DNA of 64,000 nucleotides from Escherichia phage A7_1: sequence record OP795442. The stretch is one strand, 5' to 3'. Under the pieces are notes generated by a model. It did not search any database and was not told the DNA's origin. It saw only the letters and a list, made by a program, of their open reading frames with translations. Position numbers and translations under genes: made by a program. Shown here in pieces: positions 8,583-22,588 of the stretch. How positions within the stretch are numbered: position 1 is the first letter of the stretch; each line of letters opens with the position of its first letter.

Positions 8583-8960
8583 CTATACTCCAAATGTGGA
8601 TTTGATTTCAGCAATAACCTCATGCACATTGTTTTCGTTTACTTCAAATGTGTAGGACGTTGGTTTAAGGAACGTCTGAGGTGAAACATTAACAAAGAAT
8701 TCAAATTCATCATCAAAAATTTCAAAGTATTTTCCCGGTGTTGATTCTTGACTTTTGAAAACAGTACCATCTTCCATAGTAACAGAAGAAACAGATTTTT
8801 CACCAAGGGTGTATGTTTTTAACTCATCAACAACGAAACTAGGACCGTGACGACGTAGTATTTCAACCATAGTTCGGTTGGCCCCGCAAATACCTGTCCG
8901 CTTAATAAATAACTCTTCACACCGAGGATTGAGAATATAAGTTTTTCCTACTTGCATCAT
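8583..8960 (-). CDS. hypothetical protein, tandem paralogue 1 of 3
   Basis: 125 aa; N-terminus M-x-(V/I)-GKTY-x-LN shared with the next two genes. Confidence 0.55.
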   Translation of the reverse strand: MMQVGKTYILNPRCEELFIKRTGICGANRTMVEILRRHGPSFVVDELKTYTLGEKSVSSVTMEDGTVFKSQESTPGKYFEIFDDEFEFFVNVSPQTFLKPTSYTFEVNENNVHEVIAEIKSTFGV

Positions 8961-8970
8961 AACAACCCCC

Positions 8971-9330
8971 TTAGGATAAGTTAAATGTGGATTTGATCAG
9001 GTCGATAGTTTCTTGTGCGTTTTGCTCAGATACTGACACCTGGATAATTTTAAGATCACTGACCTCTTCGAAGTATTTGAACTCAGATTCACGAAGTTCA
9101 AAGTACATTGCCCCACAGCCCACACTGAATGAATCACACCCTACAGCACCATCTTCTGTTGTGATGTTATTAACATACTCATCACCTTCGATCATACTCA
9201 TGTTATTAACAATAAATCGCGGCCCGTGCTCATCCAGAAAAGAAACAATCTCGTGATTGTAACTTGGGTCAGCCTTAATAAATTCTTCCACGAATTTTGG
9301 ATTAAGTTTATAAGTTTTACCTACTTCCAT
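8971..9330 (-). CDS. hypothetical protein, tandem paralogue 2 of 3
   Basis: 119 aa; aligns with 9342..9716 (GKTY, HGP-F-VNN, EDG, YFEL-ESEF, NAQET-DLIK-TFNL). Confidence 0.55.
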   Translation of the reverse strand: MEVGKTYKLNPKFVEEFIKADPSYNHEIVSFLDEHGPRFIVNNMSMIEGDEYVNNITTEDGAVGCDSFSVGCGAMYFELRESEFKYFEEVSDLKIIQVSVSEQNAQETIDLIKSTFNLS

Positions 9331-9341
9331 CTTTGTTCTCC

Positions 9342-9716
9342 TTACGCCAGGTTAAAGGTAGCTTTAATCAAATCTAAAGTTTCTTGTGCATTACTACGAG
9401 AGACGGCAACCTGAATAATAACAGGGTCTTCATCTTCCCCGACTTCTTTGAAGAAGGGAAATTCACTCTCTGCAAGTTCAAAGTATACACACTTGTTACC
9501 TTCGCAGTCGTGAAAAACGTCACTACCTAAAGTACCATCTTCAAATATGACATTGTTAACATATGCAACATTATCATAGAAGTGGGTGGTGTTGACAACA
9601 AATTTAGGACCGTGCTTATAAATAAGGTCAACCAATTCTTGATTGTAGCTAGGGTCCATATTGATAAAAGCTTTTTCTAAGTCTTTATTAAGAATGTAAG
9701 TTTTTCCGATTTCCAT
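9342..9716 (-). CDS. hypothetical protein, tandem paralogue 3 of 3
   Basis: 124 aa; same motif set. Confidence 0.55.
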   Translation of the reverse strand: MEIGKTYILNKDLEKAFINMDPSYNQELVDLIYKHGPKFVVNTTHFYDNVAYVNNVIFEDGTLGSDVFHDCEGNKCVYFELAESEFPFFKEVGEDEDPVIIQVAVSRSNAQETLDLIKATFNLA

Positions 9717-9729
9717 CTTTGCTCTCCTC

Positions 9730-9905
9730 TTATTTGTTGATGAATTGGCTAAGGATTTCGATAAGATCTTTAGCTTGTTTCTTGTCGAGAATCACGCTGT
9801 CTCCTGCATGGCAGATTTCAATAACATCCTCTTCTGCATGATATTCAACTTCCTTTGCATGAAAATCTTCAGTTTCTTTAATCACTTTTACAATGCGCTG
9901 TGTCA
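9730..9905 (-). CDS. small protein (about 58 aa, not in track)
   Basis: Hand-translated MTQRIVKVIKETEDFHAKEVEYH...; GGGAGAG SD upstream; approximate coordinates. Confidence 0.4.
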
Positions 9906-10016
9906 TCTTGTTTCTCTCCCTTTCTCTCTTTCATCGTTTAGTTTCGATAAGGTGATAGTACATCAACTAACCAATTATTATTTAGCAATTAGTGCTAAAC
10001 GCCATAATCAATCTTA

Positions 10017-10259
10017 TTAATTTTCATTTAATACCCTTAGTGCTCTCTTTTCACAAATATCCCTGAGCCTGATTACCTCTCCTATTAGATAGGAAATAGC
10101 CTTAGCTTGTACTGGTTCATCGTAATCCCCAACCGTCCCAAACACTTCATCGAGAGATAGGAAGAACTCTGAAGAGTAAATACTGTTTTGATCTTCTATA
10201 GCACGGTCTGCATTAAATTTAATATCTTCCAGGGCGCTATTACTGATATTCATAGTCAA
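10017..10259 (-). CDS. hypothetical protein
   Basis: Track ORF, 80 aa. Confidence 0.45.
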   Translation of the reverse strand: MTMNISNSALEDIKFNADRAIEDQNSIYSSEFFLSLDEVFGTVGDYDEPVQAKAISYLIGEVIRLRDICEKRALRVLNEN

Positions 10260-10681
10260 ACTCCATAATCTATCTTAACAAGCTTCCCTTTGTAGTATCC
10301 AAAGTTTTTAGGAAATGCGTCGTACTCGAAGAAATCTCGGTCAAGGGTTCTATCTTTATCGTTATCAATCTCATCATAAAGTTTTTGTAGATCAGCTGTA
10401 AATAATTCCTTATTCTCTACTGATTTAGCCTTGTGCATCACAACCATAAGTCCGAATCTGTTTGAGTAAGCTATTGGGCATAGATGCGGGTTATTATACC
10501 CTTTCCACTGACCCTCTGTCATATTGCTGAGCATTCCCTGAACAAACGCCTTCCATGAATTAAATCTTGGGAACTTAATCGCATACTTGTTTGTGATTAT
10601 GACAATTCTCGTCCCACCACTCCTGTTTATCTGCATCTTAATATCTCCAGACCTCGTTACTTGTTTCGATGAGGGCATCAT
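10256..10681 (-). CDS. hypothetical protein
   Basis: Track ORF, 141 aa. Confidence 0.5.
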   Translation of the reverse strand: MMPSSKQVTRSGDIKMQINRSGGTRIVIITNKYAIKFPRFNSWKAFVQGMLSNMTEGQWKGYNNPHLCPIAYSNRFGLMVVMHKAKSVENKELFTADLQKLYDEIDNDKDRTLDRDFFEYDAFPKNFGYYKGKLVKIDYGV

Positions 10682-10723
10682 ACCAGAATGAATCTGTGTG
10701 TCAACACTTTTTATTCAGATAAT

Positions 10724-10750
10724 AAAAAACCACCCCGAAGGGTGGTTTAA
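10724..10750. terminator. bidirectional terminator
   Basis: Hairpin accaccccgaagggtggt with A-run before and T-run after. Confidence 0.75.
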
Positions 10751-10751
10751 A

Positions 10752-11276
10752 TTAATTGCACAGGATGGTCTTTATAGCTGCATCAACTTCTGGACCTTCC
10801 TTACCGATAAAAGAAGCAAGACCCTTAAGTTTACAGGCTTCATACACTGCCCTAGCTTCTTCTTTTGTCCTGTATCTCCCAATATGTTTTTTGTTGATCT
10901 TGACCCTCCATTTCTGGCGATCTTCTTCCCAAGATATGCCTTTTCTTTTTGTCCAGTAACGATTAAGGTCACCGGAGATAAACAGGCAGGTTTCTGGTGA
11001 ATATACCTTACCGCCTTTTAAATCTTTATCAAGGCACTTCCCCTTCCAATCCTTTGTTTGCATCCACGCTTTGAAATTGCTAAACCTGAGCCACTCTTCA
11101 CAGACGGTAGTCCCCTCATAAGAGGGGTCCCTTGACAAAGCGCCCTGATCGTAACAACGTTGAAGCATACTCATCCATCGCATGTAGAATGGGCACATCT
11201 TTTCGTCTGGCCTAACATTGTAACCTGCGTCGTTTATACCCTTTCCGTAAACCATAAAAAACTCCTTATAAATCAA
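10752..11276 (-). CDS. AP2-like DNA-binding domain protein, homing-endonuclease-related
   Basis: C-terminal ISWEEDRQKWRVKINKKHIGRYRTKEEARAVYEA resembles AP2 domains of phage homing endonucleases; no clear HNH or GIY-YIG catalytic motif seen. Confidence 0.5.
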   Translation of the reverse strand: MIYKEFFMVYGKGINDAGYNVRPDEKMCPFYMRWMSMLQRCYDQGALSRDPSYEGTTVCEEWLRFSNFKAWMQTKDWKGKCLDKDLKGGKVYSPETCLFISGDLNRYWTKRKGISWEEDRQKWRVKINKKHIGRYRTKEEARAVYEACKLKGLASFIGKEGPEVDAAIKTILCN

Positions 11277-11282
11277 TAACTA

Positions 11283-13937
11283 CTAATGGCACGCCCCCCA
11301 GTTCATCCCTGTGAGGTATTCTCCAGTTATCATCACTGGTGATTTCATCATCTTAGCTGCTTGTTCGACACAACGAACAACCATCTCTCCTACAGGGCAG
11401 TATGTAATAGTGAAGATACCATTTTCATCAGGATCACACTTAAACTTCCCTTCTTTCACACAATGACCATCTAAGACCATCTTCTTAGCCAAGCAAGCTT
11501 CTACAAATTTTTTCGCGTCAGCTTCGTTGTCAAAGGTCCAGGTCTTCTTGAACTTGTGTGGCACTTCAAGCTGGTATTCATCATGATAGTAAATGATACG
11601 GCGAACACCTTCATCATACCAACCTTTCTTAACCAACTGCCAGTGCAGGAGGATACCTACCAAGTCAAACAGTGCAGCACCACCATTCTGCTGATAAGCA
11701 TTAAGCAATGAGTGTTTGGAACGAGTGTAGATCTTACGTCCATCAAGACCGTAGATGAATCGCTTACCGTTAGCTTCCCAAAACTTCTCTAGTGCTTCTT
11801 TACGACCTTTCAAGCCGATGTTGCTATCCCAGAATGCGTCGATTACTGCCTGGGCCTTCTCAAGAGTGATCCCCAGCATTGATGCAATCTTCGCTGCCTG
11901 TGCCCCGTACATAATTCCGTATGTCACACCTTTACCTTCACCACGAGAAACCTTCTTCCCTGCCGCTTTGGTATACGCTTCTGCGTTTCGGGAGTGAGCA
12001 TCTCCAGATTCCATGATACGAAGATAAGCGCCACCATCGAAATCATACGCGCCCCATGCCGCGATCATACCTTCCAAGTTTGAACCGTCGATACCTACCT
12101 GATATTTACCCTCGGAGGCTCTAAACAGTTCACGCATCTCTTTACCGAGAAGAACTTTCTCATCCGGCTTAGGTACGTTTGCTACGATCGTATGCTTACG
12201 ACGACCTGTGTTAGTTATTCCACTATAACGGGCCGGAAGTTTACCGTCAACCCGTAGACGTGGATGGTTAAGCCATCCGGTATCAACCTTCTCTTCTTTC
12301 AGTGGGTCAAGAACAGATCGTCGGTTACGTAAAGACAGCCATTTAACAATCTGTTTAGCCATTTCACCATCTACTCGCTCAAGGTTAGGGCAAAGACCCT
12401 GCTGATCCTTAAGTTGTGGAGATGTTGGTAATGCACGGGCTTTCTTCCTGAAGAACTTATACATCTTCTCTTTATCTTGCCACTGCTTACCACTGATACC
12501 TAAACTTTTCAGAATCAGATCGCGATATTCAGTCTGGTCAAGATCATCAATATATTGACGAACAATGATATCGACTTCGTTATCGGGACGTTGTTTCTTA
12601 AACTGGTCCTTCGTCGCATCTTTAGTTCGCCACAATGTTGGGACCCAACCAGCATCACGAATAAGGAATTTTTTAACGTCATCCTGATTACCAATACGCA
12701 TCGGGATCATAATGTCCGGCATCTTTTGTTCTTTGATATCCATCAAAGCACGAGCCATATCTTCCGGCGGCAAAGGAACAAGCCCTTGCTGCTTAACGTT
12801 TTGTGCACGGATAAAATCACCCATTTTGGATTCATCTTCTACACCGTGTTCAACACAATACTTGATCGCGGCGGCAGTAAGAGATCCGTCAGCCTTAAAC
12901 GGCTTACTTGGTGCACCTTTAAACTCTAATGCTTCCCAATTGATATTATAACCTAACTTCTCTAACCATTTCCAACCTGTACCGGAAAGAGATCCATCAC
13001 CCTTGAAAGGCTTAGATGGGAATGTCGGTTGTGCTGATTTCGACATTTCTTTCTTCGGTAACTTAGGTTCAACCTCTAACTCAATGTCTGTCATCATCTT
13101 ATCGATACGATCACGGAGCTTGAGTGCTTTTTCTTCATCAAATGAAACACCCTGAATCTCTTGCTCAATCATCAGGTAGTCGGTCAGCATACCTCGACGC
13201 AGGGCATTCTTCCAGTTGATCATTTTAAACTTCTTCTGATCTTTGTCTGTTTCATCCTTAAACATGAAGCGTTTATCATCTGGCATGGATTCACAAGAGA
13301 TCTCTTTCATCAGAGCATCCCACACCATTTCGTTGATAATTACGTCTTCAATAATACGATCGCAATATTTCCAAAGTGGAAGGCCACGCCAATCTTCAAT
13401 CGCCACTTTCTGGTTGGCTACTCGCATACCCCAAGCTTCAAGCCCGTGAGGGCCTACAGGCTTCATTTTACCTGTGACTGGGTTCTTTACCATCTCGGGA
13501 CAACCACGAGGCAGAGGGCGATCTGGATACAATGTACGGGACATTGAAAGTGTATCGAAGATGTTTACTTGTTTACCATTAATCGTACCCATGCAACCAG
13601 GGTCTGCAAACATATCGTAAGTTGTTCCAAGCATCTTCTTAAACAACTGGAGGTCGTAGCCGAAGATGTTGTGGATAGCAATTGCTTTAGGCTCTGTGAC
13701 AAACCACTCGTTTAATTCCTCAATGGTCCGAATCTTAAAGTTTTTACCTTTAGATTGGATAAATTTAACAGCTTGATCGTAACCTTCCCGCTGGGGATCA
13801 AGAAAGATGTTCCAGTTATCTTTTTTATACTCTTTAAACAAGACGCAGTGAATCAGATCAACCTCTGTCAATAGACCATTCGCTTCCGCATCTCCAATAA
13901 ATAAGCCTTTCATTTTTTCTCCTTCTTCAAGCTCCAA
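11283..13937 (-). CDS. DNA polymerase, family A, with 3'-5' exonuclease domain
   Basis: 884 aa; N-terminal FIGDAEANGL (Exo I D-x-E); motif A DGSNLEGM; motif B R-GEGKGVTYGIMYG; motif C YHDEYQLE. Confidence 0.9.
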   Translation of the reverse strand: MELEEGEKMKGLFIGDAEANGLLTEVDLIHCVLFKEYKKDNWNIFLDPQREGYDQAVKFIQSKGKNFKIRTIEELNEWFVTEPKAIAIHNIFGYDLQLFKKMLGTTYDMFADPGCMGTINGKQVNIFDTLSMSRTLYPDRPLPRGCPEMVKNPVTGKMKPVGPHGLEAWGMRVANQKVAIEDWRGLPLWKYCDRIIEDVIINEMVWDALMKEISCESMPDDKRFMFKDETDKDQKKFKMINWKNALRRGMLTDYLMIEQEIQGVSFDEEKALKLRDRIDKMMTDIELEVEPKLPKKEMSKSAQPTFPSKPFKGDGSLSGTGWKWLEKLGYNINWEALEFKGAPSKPFKADGSLTAAAIKYCVEHGVEDESKMGDFIRAQNVKQQGLVPLPPEDMARALMDIKEQKMPDIMIPMRIGNQDDVKKFLIRDAGWVPTLWRTKDATKDQFKKQRPDNEVDIIVRQYIDDLDQTEYRDLILKSLGISGKQWQDKEKMYKFFRKKARALPTSPQLKDQQGLCPNLERVDGEMAKQIVKWLSLRNRRSVLDPLKEEKVDTGWLNHPRLRVDGKLPARYSGITNTGRRKHTIVANVPKPDEKVLLGKEMRELFRASEGKYQVGIDGSNLEGMIAAWGAYDFDGGAYLRIMESGDAHSRNAEAYTKAAGKKVSRGEGKGVTYGIMYGAQAAKIASMLGITLEKAQAVIDAFWDSNIGLKGRKEALEKFWEANGKRFIYGLDGRKIYTRSKHSLLNAYQQNGGAALFDLVGILLHWQLVKKGWYDEGVRRIIYYHDEYQLEVPHKFKKTWTFDNEADAKKFVEACLAKKMVLDGHCVKEGKFKCDPDENGIFTITYCPVGEMVVRCVEQAAKMMKSPVMITGEYLTGMNWGACH

Positions 13938-19792: not shown

Positions 19793-20902
19793 TCAGAAAG
19801 GTGCTTCGTCGTCGAAATCTACATCTTCAACTTCCGGTACATCAGGAATGTCACCTGCGGATTCAACGATACTCTGTTGTTCCCACGTAGGTTCCTCTGA
19901 AGGTTGGTCCATTTCTTCCATAACCTTCTTGATCTCTTCCTCTTGCTCACGTAGGAAGTTATCATCCGGCTCAGGAATATCTTCCTCTTTAATATCTGAA
20001 CGAGTGAGATCACTGTTTTGTTCAGACAAAGGTTGAATCTCTGCGGCCTTAGGTTTGAAATCTGGAGAACGATGATCATCTTCTGGATGAGCGGCATACC
20101 ACTCACGAAGAGTTTCATAAGGACTCTCTAGGAAGCCCTCTGGCGGTTCCAGATAATCACCTGTATCAATGTCATAGAACACAGGGAATTTACCAGCACG
20201 ACCGTGTTTACGGTCATCCAGGATAACAAAGTAAGAAGTGTTACGTTGTTTCATCGGAAGCTCTGGATCTTTGTTACGTTCAATACCCCACATATAGTAA
20301 GTGTTTCGCATCATTGCACGGCTACCAGCAAACTGCGCCGACTGGACTTGACCACCAAATTCATGAGGCTTACCAGATTCAGGCTTGTTAAGGTGACAGA
20401 AGCAATAATAAGTAAAGCCAAGCTCTTTTGCCAGTTTGGAGATCTCATCCGAGAATCGTTCCAGTTCCTGGTTAGCTTCAGAAGCACTCATACCTTGCAC
20501 AAGACGAGTGATCGGGTCAATAAAGATATCTTCACAACCTTCTACGATCACTGCGTGACGGATAGCACCTTTCAGTTCATCCCATACTGCACGACCATAG
20601 TTGTTATAATAGATAACACTATCACCAACTTCATCAGTAGCTTTGATCAGTTCTTCTTGCTTAAAGTAGCCACGTTGACCTTCAAATACTTCATTACCCC
20701 AAATGTCACGGAAAGTTCCATCTTCTTGAGGAATCATTACCTTTTCTGCGTTAACAAAGTCTTTATGATAACGCTTACCTGCGATCTTCTTACAAGTGAT
20801 CTCGTTCTCTTCTTCAAACTTAAACACCGCAGCTTTTGACTTCTCAATACCCGTGATGTGTTCAACCATTTGGTTAAGAAGTTCAGACTTGCCCATTTTC
20901 AC
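19793..20902 (-). CDS. replicative helicase domain (T7 gp4-like), 3' exon of split primase-helicase
   Basis: Begins (V/M)KMGKSELL, the second half of a Walker A box; RecA-like core; ends with acidic tail DVDFDDEAPF. Confidence 0.8.
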   Translation of the reverse strand: MKMGKSELLNQMVEHITGIEKSKAAVFKFEEENEITCKKIAGKRYHKDFVNAEKVMIPQEDGTFRDIWGNEVFEGQRGYFKQEELIKATDEVGDSVIYYNNYGRAVWDELKGAIRHAVIVEGCEDIFIDPITRLVQGMSASEANQELERFSDEISKLAKELGFTYYCFCHLNKPESGKPHEFGGQVQSAQFAGSRAMMRNTYYMWGIERNKDPELPMKQRNTSYFVILDDRKHGRAGKFPVFYDIDTGDYLEPPEGFLESPYETLREWYAAHPEDDHRSPDFKPKAAEIQPLSEQNSDLTRSDIKEEDIPEPDDNFLREQEEEIKKVMEEMDQPSEEPTWEQQSIVESAGDIPDVPEVEDVDFDDEAPF

Positions 20903-21643
20903 CGTTATGTTCGACAGGGTTCGCTACTCCCTGCCCGTTCTCTTACGAACTGCTACATGTCCCCATGCAGACCAGACTATATCTTCAACCTGTTTCCAGG
21001 TGCTATGCACTTCGGACCGCTTGGTCCTACTCTACTCGATTCAAGAGTCTAGCTCTTGTCTTTCGATAGTCGTTGCTCCTTCCTCTCAACCGCTTTGTAA
21101 TTTGTCTTACGGTATCTCTGTGTATCCCAAAATGCTCTGCAATTTCTTTTTGTTGAAGCGTGGTATTAATAACCATTTCGTAAACCTGCTTCTCAAAATC
21201 ATCAGCATATCTATTTGGATTTCTTCTACCGTTGGCCCAACCATGATCGACATTTTCTTTCGTGGTTGTCCATTCCAAATTAACATCGTTGTTGTTTTGC
21301 CTGTCGCTATCTTTATGATTAACAACAGGAAGGTTATGAGGGTTATCAACGTAGTGTTCAGCCACCAATTGGTGAATAAATCTACGTGTAACCTTACCAT
21401 CTTTACTTAACGAAACTCTAAGATACCCTGAACTATTGGTATCCGGTTTGAGTTTTTTAAGCTTCCGGTAAACATCTCCCCTTCGGGTAATGATGTAATT
21501 TTCAAAACCTTTTATTCTTTTCATTTCCCCCTCCTTGCAATAAACAAAGAGGTTGAGAGGCTTGGATCAGGATTACGTGTTCTACGCTTCCCCTGAGTTC
21601 ACATAGTATTTAGTCGAGGCATCTCTGCCAAGGCTGGCTAGAC
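20903..21643 (-). mobile_element. intervening sequence in primase-helicase gene, candidate group I intron with HNH homing endonuclease ORF
   Basis: About 740 nt between primase stop and helicase start; contains an independent ORF with its own SD; approximate boundaries. Confidence 0.6.
21027..21524 (-). CDS. HNH-family homing endonuclease (intron-encoded candidate)
   Basis: 165 aa; N-terminal GFENYIITRRGDVY (NUMOD4-like), HNH-type core, basic C-terminal DNA-binding tail; AAGGAGGGGG SD. Confidence 0.8.
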   Translation of the reverse strand: MKRIKGFENYIITRRGDVYRKLKKLKPDTNSSGYLRVSLSKDGKVTRRFIHQLVAEHYVDNPHNLPVVNHKDSDRQNNNDVNLEWTTTKENVDHGWANGRRNPNRYADDFEKQVYEMVINTTLQQKEIAEHFGIHRDTVRQITKRLRGRSNDYRKTRARLLNRVE

Positions 21644-22588
21644 TTAATGTTTACCAGCACCGATGAAGTAACCTTCACCTGGACGACGACCCAAGGTAAG
21701 CTTGGTCATGGTGGGCCAAGGGAACTTCTTGCCGAGTTTAGGGATCTCATGTGCCTTTTCGCGGAACTGTGAATAAGTCGAGAAACCATCCGGCACATAT
21801 TCCTTTGGCTTCATTGCAGCCCAAAACAACTGATCAGAAAGTCCTTTGTTATACATGTCGCAAGGGTCCATATCTTCTGGAATGTCCACGACCTTCATTT
21901 GTGGAATTACAGAGTATACCGCTGCAACTGCATCTTTACCTTTCATGATCCCTTTGGCCTTCTCTGCTTCTGTCGCACGGTCAGCATCGAAAGCTACGAT
22001 AATCTCTTCAAACTTACTCAGAAGCTTATAGTTATTCTTCTGTGATAAGTTTTGCACGGCATTGGATGTACCGTTAGAGATAGATACAACTGTGAAGTTT
22101 GGTTTACGAGTGGAACCATCCTTCGGTTTGTACTTCTCTGTCAATACCTGCCACAAGATTGCAGCATCGTATTCACCTTCAGTGATAAAGATCATACGTT
22201 TGGAAGACTTGTTTGCACCTTCCAGACCAAACATATCACAGGCTACAGATTGGAAACCGATAGTTGTAAAGTGCCCTTTCTGTTGCTTAGGGATCGTAAG
22301 ATCACGCTTTTTAAAACCTACAACCTTACCTTCCAATGTGTACGGAAAATAATGTGCTTCTGGAGTCATACCGTCTTTAGCTGACAACTTGGTACGAATA
22401 CCAAATCGTTTAGCTGTCTTTTCGTCGATACCACGCTCAGGGATACTTTTACACGGGTAAGTCAATACATCTTCAACTGTTTCTTCCACACGAGACACAC
22501 CACCACCATAATTACGTGCTACTGAAGCTTTAGGATTTTTATGTCCGAACTTATAACCGCCAAACAAACTTTCGCCAATAGTGCTCAT
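21644..22588 (-). CDS. DNA primase (TOPRIM) domain, 5' exon of split primase-helicase
   Basis: 314 aa; TOPRIM motifs IFITEGEYDA and VAFDADRA; ends GEGYFIGAGKH-stop, the first half of a Walker A box. Confidence 0.8.
   Translation of the reverse strand: MSTIGESLFGGYKFGHKNPKASVARNYGGGVSRVEETVEDVLTYPCKSIPERGIDEKTAKRFGIRTKLSAKDGMTPEAHYFPYTLEGKVVGFKKRDLTIPKQQKGHFTTIGFQSVACDMFGLEGANKSSKRMIFITEGEYDAAILWQVLTEKYKPKDGSTRKPNFTVVSISNGTSNAVQNLSQKNNYKLLSKFEEIIVAFDADRATEAEKAKGIMKGKDAVAAVYSVIPQMKVVDIPEDMDPCDMYNKGLSDQLFWAAMKPKEYVPDGFSTYSQFREKAHEIPKLGKKFPWPTMTKLTLGRRPGEGYFIGAGKH

Follow-up and report, generated by a model that had tools for sequence, protein, structure and literature searches.

Immediately downstream of the DNA polymerase gene of Escherichia phage A7_1 is a small gene that most likely represents a homing endonuclease gene (HEG) of the IPA-HNH family, free-standing and active. 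It lies in the 64,000-nucleotide stretch of phage DNA that we analyzed (record OP795442; here called the window), which comes from a Vequintavirinae (rV5-like) coliphage that is here ∼95 to 96% identical to phages A5-4, W70, A73, UPEC06, and LTH01. The gene encodes a conserved two-domain protein of this family, is present or absent as a unit among these close relatives, and keeps its location in distant ones; its catalysis, its target site, and its homing we infer. The coordinates of the gene, its domains, and its surroundings are collected in Table 1.

Table 1. Features of the cassette and its surroundings (window coordinates).
Feature	Coordinates	Strand	Basis or remark
Cassette of 532 bp: 27-nt leader with ribosome-binding site, plus ORF	10755..11286	.	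BLASTN boundaries, junction sequences
CDS, 167-aa IPA-HNH/AP2 protein	10752..11255	-	TAA stop at 10752-10754; ORF listing, database identity, phrog_953
Shine-Dalgarno sequence AAGGAG	11262..11267	-	6 nt 5' of the ATG at 11255; belongs to the mobile cassette
N-terminal domain, residues 1-102, atypical "IPA-HNH" nuclease-like module	10950..11255	-	Helical part, then beta-beta-alpha unit
Beta-beta-alpha core, residues 73-102	10950..11039	-	AlphaFold2 secondary structure and invariance
AP2 DNA-binding domain, residues 103-149	10809..10949	-	Pfam family-level matches, profile, AlphaFold fold
C-terminal helix, residues 150-167, poorly conserved	10755..10808	-	AlphaFold2 helix 155-166; 16% mean pairwise identity
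Intact family-A DNA polymerase gene, rV5/ICP1 type, 884 aa	11283..13937	-	ORF listing and profile matches
G-rich last polymerase codons, W-G-A-C, coding strand CTGGGGGGCGTGCC	11287..11300	-	Adjoins the insertion point
Intrinsic terminator, strong hairpin plus T-run	10727..10748	-	4 nt past the stop codon of the AP2-protein gene

The preliminary description of this locus had recorded an ORF at 10752 to 11276 with no strand. The six-frame ORF listing confirmed it as a minus-strand frame that has these limits if opened at the TTG at 11276. The true start can be placed with near certainty at the ATG at 11255, because AAGGAG lies at the proper place upstream of it, the homologs all begin M-[VIL]-Y-G, and the database copy is 167 aa long. 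That copy is annotated in Escherichia phage A7_1 as "hypothetical protein A71_158" and is 100% identical with the whole query covered. A search with the 167-aa protein returned 946 homologs. The leader of the gene folds no better than shuffled sequence (z = -0.06), and a hairpin hiding the ribosome-binding site was therefore rejected. Likewise, no Rfam family reached its gathering score anywhere in the 64-kb window, which rules out an RNA element or an intron at the ORF. Two plus-strand ORFs (10698-11000 and 10756-10959) were set aside as shadows of the minus-strand gene.

The C terminus had been described as resembling AP2 domains, and the family-level evidence bears this out. On the A7_1 protein alone, the Pfam AP2 match is weak (residues 103 to 144; E = 0.0055; 17.4 bits against a cutoff of 33.3). 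Pfam AP2 is matched by 59 of 120 family members, with a best E value of 7.5e-7, and when a profile of the family was searched against PDB sequences, the WRINKLED1 AP2 domain (7wq5) scored E = 9e-6, with further plant AP2 structures at E values of 0.2 to 1. In the AlphaFold2 model (pLDDT 96.8), residues 107 to 149 form three strands and a helix in the AP2 topology. Both hallmarks of AP2/ERF domains (PF00847), a match to the profile and a sheet of three strands packed against a single helix, were thus found.

The IPA-HNH HEGs were defined by Barth, Dunham, and Seed in 2023 as proteins with a C-terminal AP2 domain and an HNH-like N-terminal domain that is too divergent for Pfam HNH_3 and is detected only by HHsearch (PMC10448857). 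Their census counted 431 such genes in 240 phages; ICP1, Barbaviruses, and Flaumdraviruses are rich in them, and the genes lie most often beside DNA polymerase genes (29% of cases). ICP1 gp59, gp209, and gp115-116 belong to the family, with gp59 as a founding member (PMC10448857). Judged from its sequence, the A7_1 protein is a member. It matched gp59 of Vibrio phage ICP1 by BLASTP (E = 1e-14; 33% identity) and by hhalign over both domains (probability 99.8%; E = 4.5e-29), and tblastn of gp59 on the window matched 10896-11177 (E = 2e-11). In the PHROGs collection, the whole protein falls into phrog_953, "HNH endonuclease," over its full length (E = 4e-58). The two proteins share a D-K-D...Y...C...N motif, the two-domain layout, and a place right after an rV5-type polymerase gene, since gp59 directly follows the rV5-like polymerase gp58 in the ICP1 genome; they differ in that gp59 has 272 aa, with an N-terminal extension of ∼85 residues, whereas the A7_1 protein has 167 aa and no extension. 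The features by which the family is recognized, namely, a gp59-homologous N-terminal domain, a C-terminal AP2 domain, a free-standing position beside an essential gene, and variable presence among relatives, were all found. The A7_1 member resides in Vequintavirinae coliphages, whereas the terms "Vequintavirinae" and "rV5" are absent from the text of PMC10448857.

By tblastn, the family was located at 1,745 places, distributed over 1,193 phage records; a single genome can contain as many as 6 copies. The spread (Vibrio, 702 records; Rheinheimera, 115; Pseudomonas KIL phages, up to 6 copies) agrees with the published one (PMC10448857), and at E ≤ 0.001, the family comprises 21,266 cluster representatives at 50% identity. 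Three of its polypeptides (P0155, P0165, and P0297; 399 to 571 aa) carry two IPA-HNH N-terminal domains each, and P0237 combines the N-terminal domain with AP2 and DUF551, which suggests tandem fusion and domain shuffling in the family. The published account is bioinformatic and contains neither a discussion of catalytic residues nor a cleavage assay for IPA-HNH (PMC10448857). It was the only paper that a full-text literature search under "IPA-HNH" returned, with no cleavage or homing shown for any member. Canonical HNH_3-AP2 HEGs (Magnani et al. 2004; Felix 01, RB49, and Xp10; His-Me group 2 with I-HmuI) likewise consist of a nuclease module followed by an AP2 module and, like the A7_1 gene, are free-standing in phages beside essential genes.

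The N-terminal half is the best conserved part of the protein. Mean pairwise identity is 58% in this domain, 32% in AP2, and 16% in the tail, and in 120 relatives, down to ∼38% identity, residues W27, Y46, W55, F61, W64, D76, K77, Y85, C90, and N98 are invariant. Among five orthologs, pN is 0.12 to 0.24 per site with synonymous sites saturated, indicating strong purifying selection. The AlphaFold2 model folds the domain confidently as a set of helices, strand 73-76, a loop, strand 91-94, and helix 95-102. The helical part carries a Y-x2-W-x2-M-x2-R-C-Y motif; in the core, D76-K77-D78 ends strand 1, Y85-S86-P87 lies in the loop, and N98-R99 lies on the helix. We propose that D76 and N98 would serve as metal ligands and Y85 as a tyrosine base.

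The preliminary description had found no HNH or GIY-YIG motif in this half, which holds at the level of Pfam and NCBIfam. Pfam HNH/HNH_3 (PF13392) matched neither the A7_1 protein nor any of 120 relatives even at E = 10, and no GIY-YIG profile matched in Pfam, NCBIfam, or PHROGs. An hhalign comparison of the N-terminal domain with an HNH_3 alignment built from the intervening ORF of A5-4 was negative (probability 0.1%). AP2 or chance matches were all that came from NCBIfam and from searches of PDB sequences by phmmer or profile, whether the query was the full protein or the N-terminal domain; Foldseek against the PDB gave nothing significant. No bridge to canonical HNH families appeared among the best 150 of the 21,266 cluster representatives, and the longer proteins among these 150 contain only AP2, tandem duplications, or DUF551. 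The canonical general-base histidine at the end of strand 1 is absent; its position is taken by Lys77, invariant in 120 sequences. The further suggestion that the protein is degenerate and kept as a DNA-binding regulator finds no support in the strong conservation and purifying selection of this half, its homology to IPA-HNH, or the full-length phrog_953 match. The nuclease half probably looks hard to recognize because its usual catalytic histidine has been replaced and not because it has decayed.

The best structural match of the N-terminal half was the HNH restriction enzyme PacI (PDB 3LDY/3M7K). PacI, group 20 of the His-Me fingers in the classification of Jablonska et al. 2017 (PMC5714182), is a His-Me enzyme without the catalytic histidine, in which a loop tyrosine takes over that role and the metal sits on one Asp and one Asn (PMC5714182, PMC4081073). 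Comparing sequences rather than superposed structures (our PacI sequence matches 3LDY exactly), we found D92-R93...Y100-S-P...N113-R114 of PacI in the same order as D76-K77...Y85-S-P...N98-R99 of the A7_1 protein, with a Tyr-to-Asn spacing of 13 in both (Y100-N113 and Y85-N98). This D-K/R...Y-S-P...N likeness, noticed after the fact, is suggestive. That the protein works like PacI is reasonable to infer, whereas membership in the PacI family is not established: hhalign against PacI and nine homologs gave a probability below 1%, and hmmsearch against PacI gave 3.3 bits, a score exceeded by at least 15 of 2,000 shuffles. We rejected assignment to that family because these results are insignificant. 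PacI is also a bacterial, homodimeric 8-bp cutter with two Cys4 zinc sites and no AP2 domain, whereas the A7_1 protein bears AP2 and is encoded by a mobile phage gene. The two Cys4 sites are not reproduced in the A7_1 protein, whose cysteines (C21, C34, C52, and C90) are scattered with no CxxC pairs; a Cys4 site made of these four was given less weight, as Thr or Ser replaces C21 in the closest orthologs. Tentatively, and as a possibility we rate somewhat below even, the IPA-HNH domain may be a PacI-type, tyrosine-dependent His-Me finger in which lysine replaces the general-base histidine and the loop tyrosine carries the chemistry.

Comparison with close relatives delimits the gene as a mobile unit. 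The proximity to the DNA polymerase gene noted in the preliminary description is exact: the PolA ORF ends upstream of the gene, the first codon of which lies 27 nt past the polymerase stop codon, and the cassette sits precisely between that stop codon and the terminator. In the relatives without the HEG, the terminator directly follows the polymerase stop codon. By pairwise BLASTN, the flanks in UPEC06 align up to 10754 and again from 11287, with 4 nt between them; A5-4 lacks window positions 10756-11313, and W70 lacks 10755-11277. Against UPEC06, W70, and A5-4, with flanks ∼95 to 96% identical, the cassette is a clean presence/absence indel. Orthologs occur in four other phage genomes or contigs, always at the polymerase 3' end. 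In the genus Certrevirus, Pectobacterium phage P7_Pc has a 75%-identical ortholog in the same spot and Cronobacter phage CR3 has none; in metagenomic contigs L007, L006, and L008, the orthologs are 72%, 62%, and 49% identical, respectively, and lie 10 to 30 nt past the polymerase gene. The cassette leader, TTATAAGGAGTTTTT-ATG, recurs nearly unchanged in L007 and slightly altered in P7_Pc and L006.

Other mobile elements are found in and around the same polymerase gene. A5-4 (L001 3554-4325) and W70 (L002 2615-3386) contain another insert, of 772 bp, that carries a canonical 172-aa HNH_3 ORF and divides the polymerase at window position 11582/11583, leaving a large N-terminal portion and a C-terminal portion of 116 aa; the window polymerase is uninterrupted there. 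Other ORFs interrupt the polymerase in L006 and L008, that of L008 including an Endonuclease_7 ORF, and L007 has an HNH_3 ORF just 5' of the polymerase gene. The earlier reading of the gene as a homing-endonuclease-type AP2 protein at a classic homing target thus agrees with the clean indel and with the splitting of related polymerases by HNH_3 (A5-4 and W70) and Endonuclease_7 (L008) ORFs. The conserved 3' end of the polymerase gene is presumably the homing target region.

The polymerase 3' end beside the cassette is mosaic. At window positions 11320-11420 (minus strand), nucleotides 40 to 135 upstream of the stop codon are those of A5-4 and depart from the UPEC06 and W70 sequences at ∼25 sites, few of them altering the protein; in the last ∼38 nt the pattern is inverted, and the match is to UPEC06 and W70. 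This tract looks like a recombination or co-conversion boundary beside the cassette, and exchange boundaries of this kind have been described by Barth et al. (PMC10448857). The G6 run in the polymerase end lies 8 to 13 nt from the insertion point and is one of three G6 or C6 runs in the window. G-rich W-G-x-C-H codons precede the polymerase stop in Vequintavirinae relatives and in L006 to L008, and the polymerase of ICP1 also has a G-rich end, but one with a different reading. AP2 domains are said to favor GC-rich sites (PMC10448857), and we suggest, speculatively, that CTGGGGGGCGTGCC may be a candidate AP2 recognition element.

These features can be combined into a homing cycle. Because the HEG lies between the polymerase stop codon and the operon terminator, it would be co-transcribed with the polymerase gene and translated from its own AAGGAG. 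In a co-infecting, cassette-less relative, the AP2 domain would anchor on the G/C-rich sequence of the conserved polymerase 3' end, and the beta-beta-alpha module would nick or cut nearby by means of a single metal ion bound by Asp76 and Asn98, with Tyr85 standing in for the catalytic histidine as in PacI and Lys77 in the place of PacI Arg93. Recombinational repair would then copy the 532-bp cassette and neighboring polymerase sequence into the recipient. The A7_1 genome itself would be protected, since its cassette interrupts the junction of polymerase stop codon and terminator. Counting against an active HEG may be the absent general-base histidine, the failure of HNH_3 to match, and the missing PacI zinc sites; the constant place after the polymerase gene could instead reflect a polymerase-linked function.

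The main rival explanation, proposed in the preliminary description, holds that the protein is a domesticated, catalytically dead HEG descendant that binds DNA sequence specifically, for example, to repress a phage or host gene, to regulate read-through in the polymerase operon, or to silence a host defense in the manner of CasPRs, with the N-terminal domain as a second DNA-binding or dimerization module. We regard this as unlikely. It would account for the missing histidine and for the lack of a significant sequence-profile link to any proven nuclease, and base-less His-Me folds such as the Smad MH1 domain are known as inactive DNA binders (PMC5714182); however, D76, K77, Y85, and N98 are invariant just where a PacI-type active site would lie, and an N-terminal domain conserved above the DNA-binding domain is what is usually seen when a catalytic module is coupled to a specificity module that varies. 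Precedents for co-option exist, in that HEG DNA-binding domains have been recruited as repressors (CapR) and I-TevI represses its own gene (PMC10448857), but the A7_1 gene is dispensable, patchy among ∼95%-identical phages, and multicopy in some genomes, unlike a fixed regulator. Truly degenerate HNH-AP2 remnants, as in Xanthomonas phages, are truncated (PMC2248197), whereas the A7_1 protein is full length. Nuclease-free phage AP2 proteins also occur: CasPRs (CapR plus AP2), which block transcription of cas genes, resemble the A7_1 protein as small phage proteins with a Cys-containing N-terminal domain, a C-terminal AP2 domain, and kinship to HEG DNA-binding modules (bioRxiv 10.64898/2026.02.23.707548). 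They reside in acr loci of Bacillota prophages (bioRxiv 10.64898/2026.02.23.707548), whereas the A7_1 gene follows a polymerase gene in a lytic coliphage. The CapR zinc finger, CxCxC...CxC, that defines CasPRs is absent from the A7_1 sequence and from the family alignment, and we rejected a CapR/CasPR identity for this reason.

A different alternative keeps the protein an active, site-specific nuclease and has it selected for something other than homing, such as excluding or degrading co-infecting related phages or host DNA (restriction-like, in the way of PacI) or a part in polymerase-linked DNA metabolism. The closest structural match is a restriction enzyme, relatives are labeled "restriction endonuclease" both by the annotators of P7_Pc and in phrog_8790, HEG-like HNH genes with host-phage functions are known (e.g., the HK97 terminase-associated HNH; Barth et al., PMC10448857), and the location at the polymerase 3' end is kept across very divergent phages, ICP1 included. 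To this alternative we nevertheless give a low probability. A cassette indel that is clean and includes its own leader, mosaic flanks, and a multicopy, patchy distribution together form a homing signature, and no partner methylase or immunity gene was evident in the flanking ORFs. Cutting a competitor and homing are mechanistically the same event, so the two readings differ mainly in the selected effect, and sequence alone cannot separate them. A trivial explanation, that the ORF is a chance frame or a decaying pseudogene, might be read from its sole annotation in A7_1 as a hypothetical protein; with the phrog_953 match over the full length (E = 4e-58), 946 homologs, a pLDDT of 96.8, purifying selection, and a good ribosome-binding site and terminator, it is extremely improbable.

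As a probable active HEG of an already described family, the A7_1 gene is an ordinary selfish element and is unsurprising to specialists in phage genomics. A71_158 and its relatives can now be named IPA-HNH/AP2 homing endonuclease genes, and annotators can mark the 3' end of the polymerase gene in rV5-like, ICP1-like, and related phages as a site of recurrent homing; such homing would produce local mosaicism in polymerase genes used as phylogenetic markers. If the PacI-type reading is true, the IPA-HNH family, with more than 21,000 clusters at 50% identity, would be the first HEG class with Tyr instead of His, and the orphan restriction enzyme PacI would be a domesticated cousin of phage HEGs.

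Several further features of the window were recorded. Beyond the terminator hairpin is a strong promoter-like site, TTGACA-16-TATGAT, at 10704..10677. It belongs to a second indel (9732-10698, minus strand) that holds three small ORFs of 58, 80, and 141 aa, the last of which matches phrog_4301, of unknown function; the block is also present in A5-4 and is absent from UPEC06 and W70. Next to it, at 8583-9716 (minus strand), are three tandem paralogs of 125, 119, and 124 aa that match Pfam FRD2 (PF03197, bacteriophage FRD2 protein; E = 1e-18 to 1e-20). The primase-helicase gene (19793-22588, minus strand) is split inside its Walker-A region: the Toprim part (21644-22588) ends "...FIGAGKH," and the DnaB_C part (19793-20902) begins "..MGKSELL." Between the two parts lies a 165-aa HNH_3-plus-HTH ORF (21027-21524), and a subthreshold Rfam group I intron match covers 20953-21143 (24.9 bits; local E = 5.8e-4; gathering score, 50). 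The insert is probably a group I intron with an HEG inside it.
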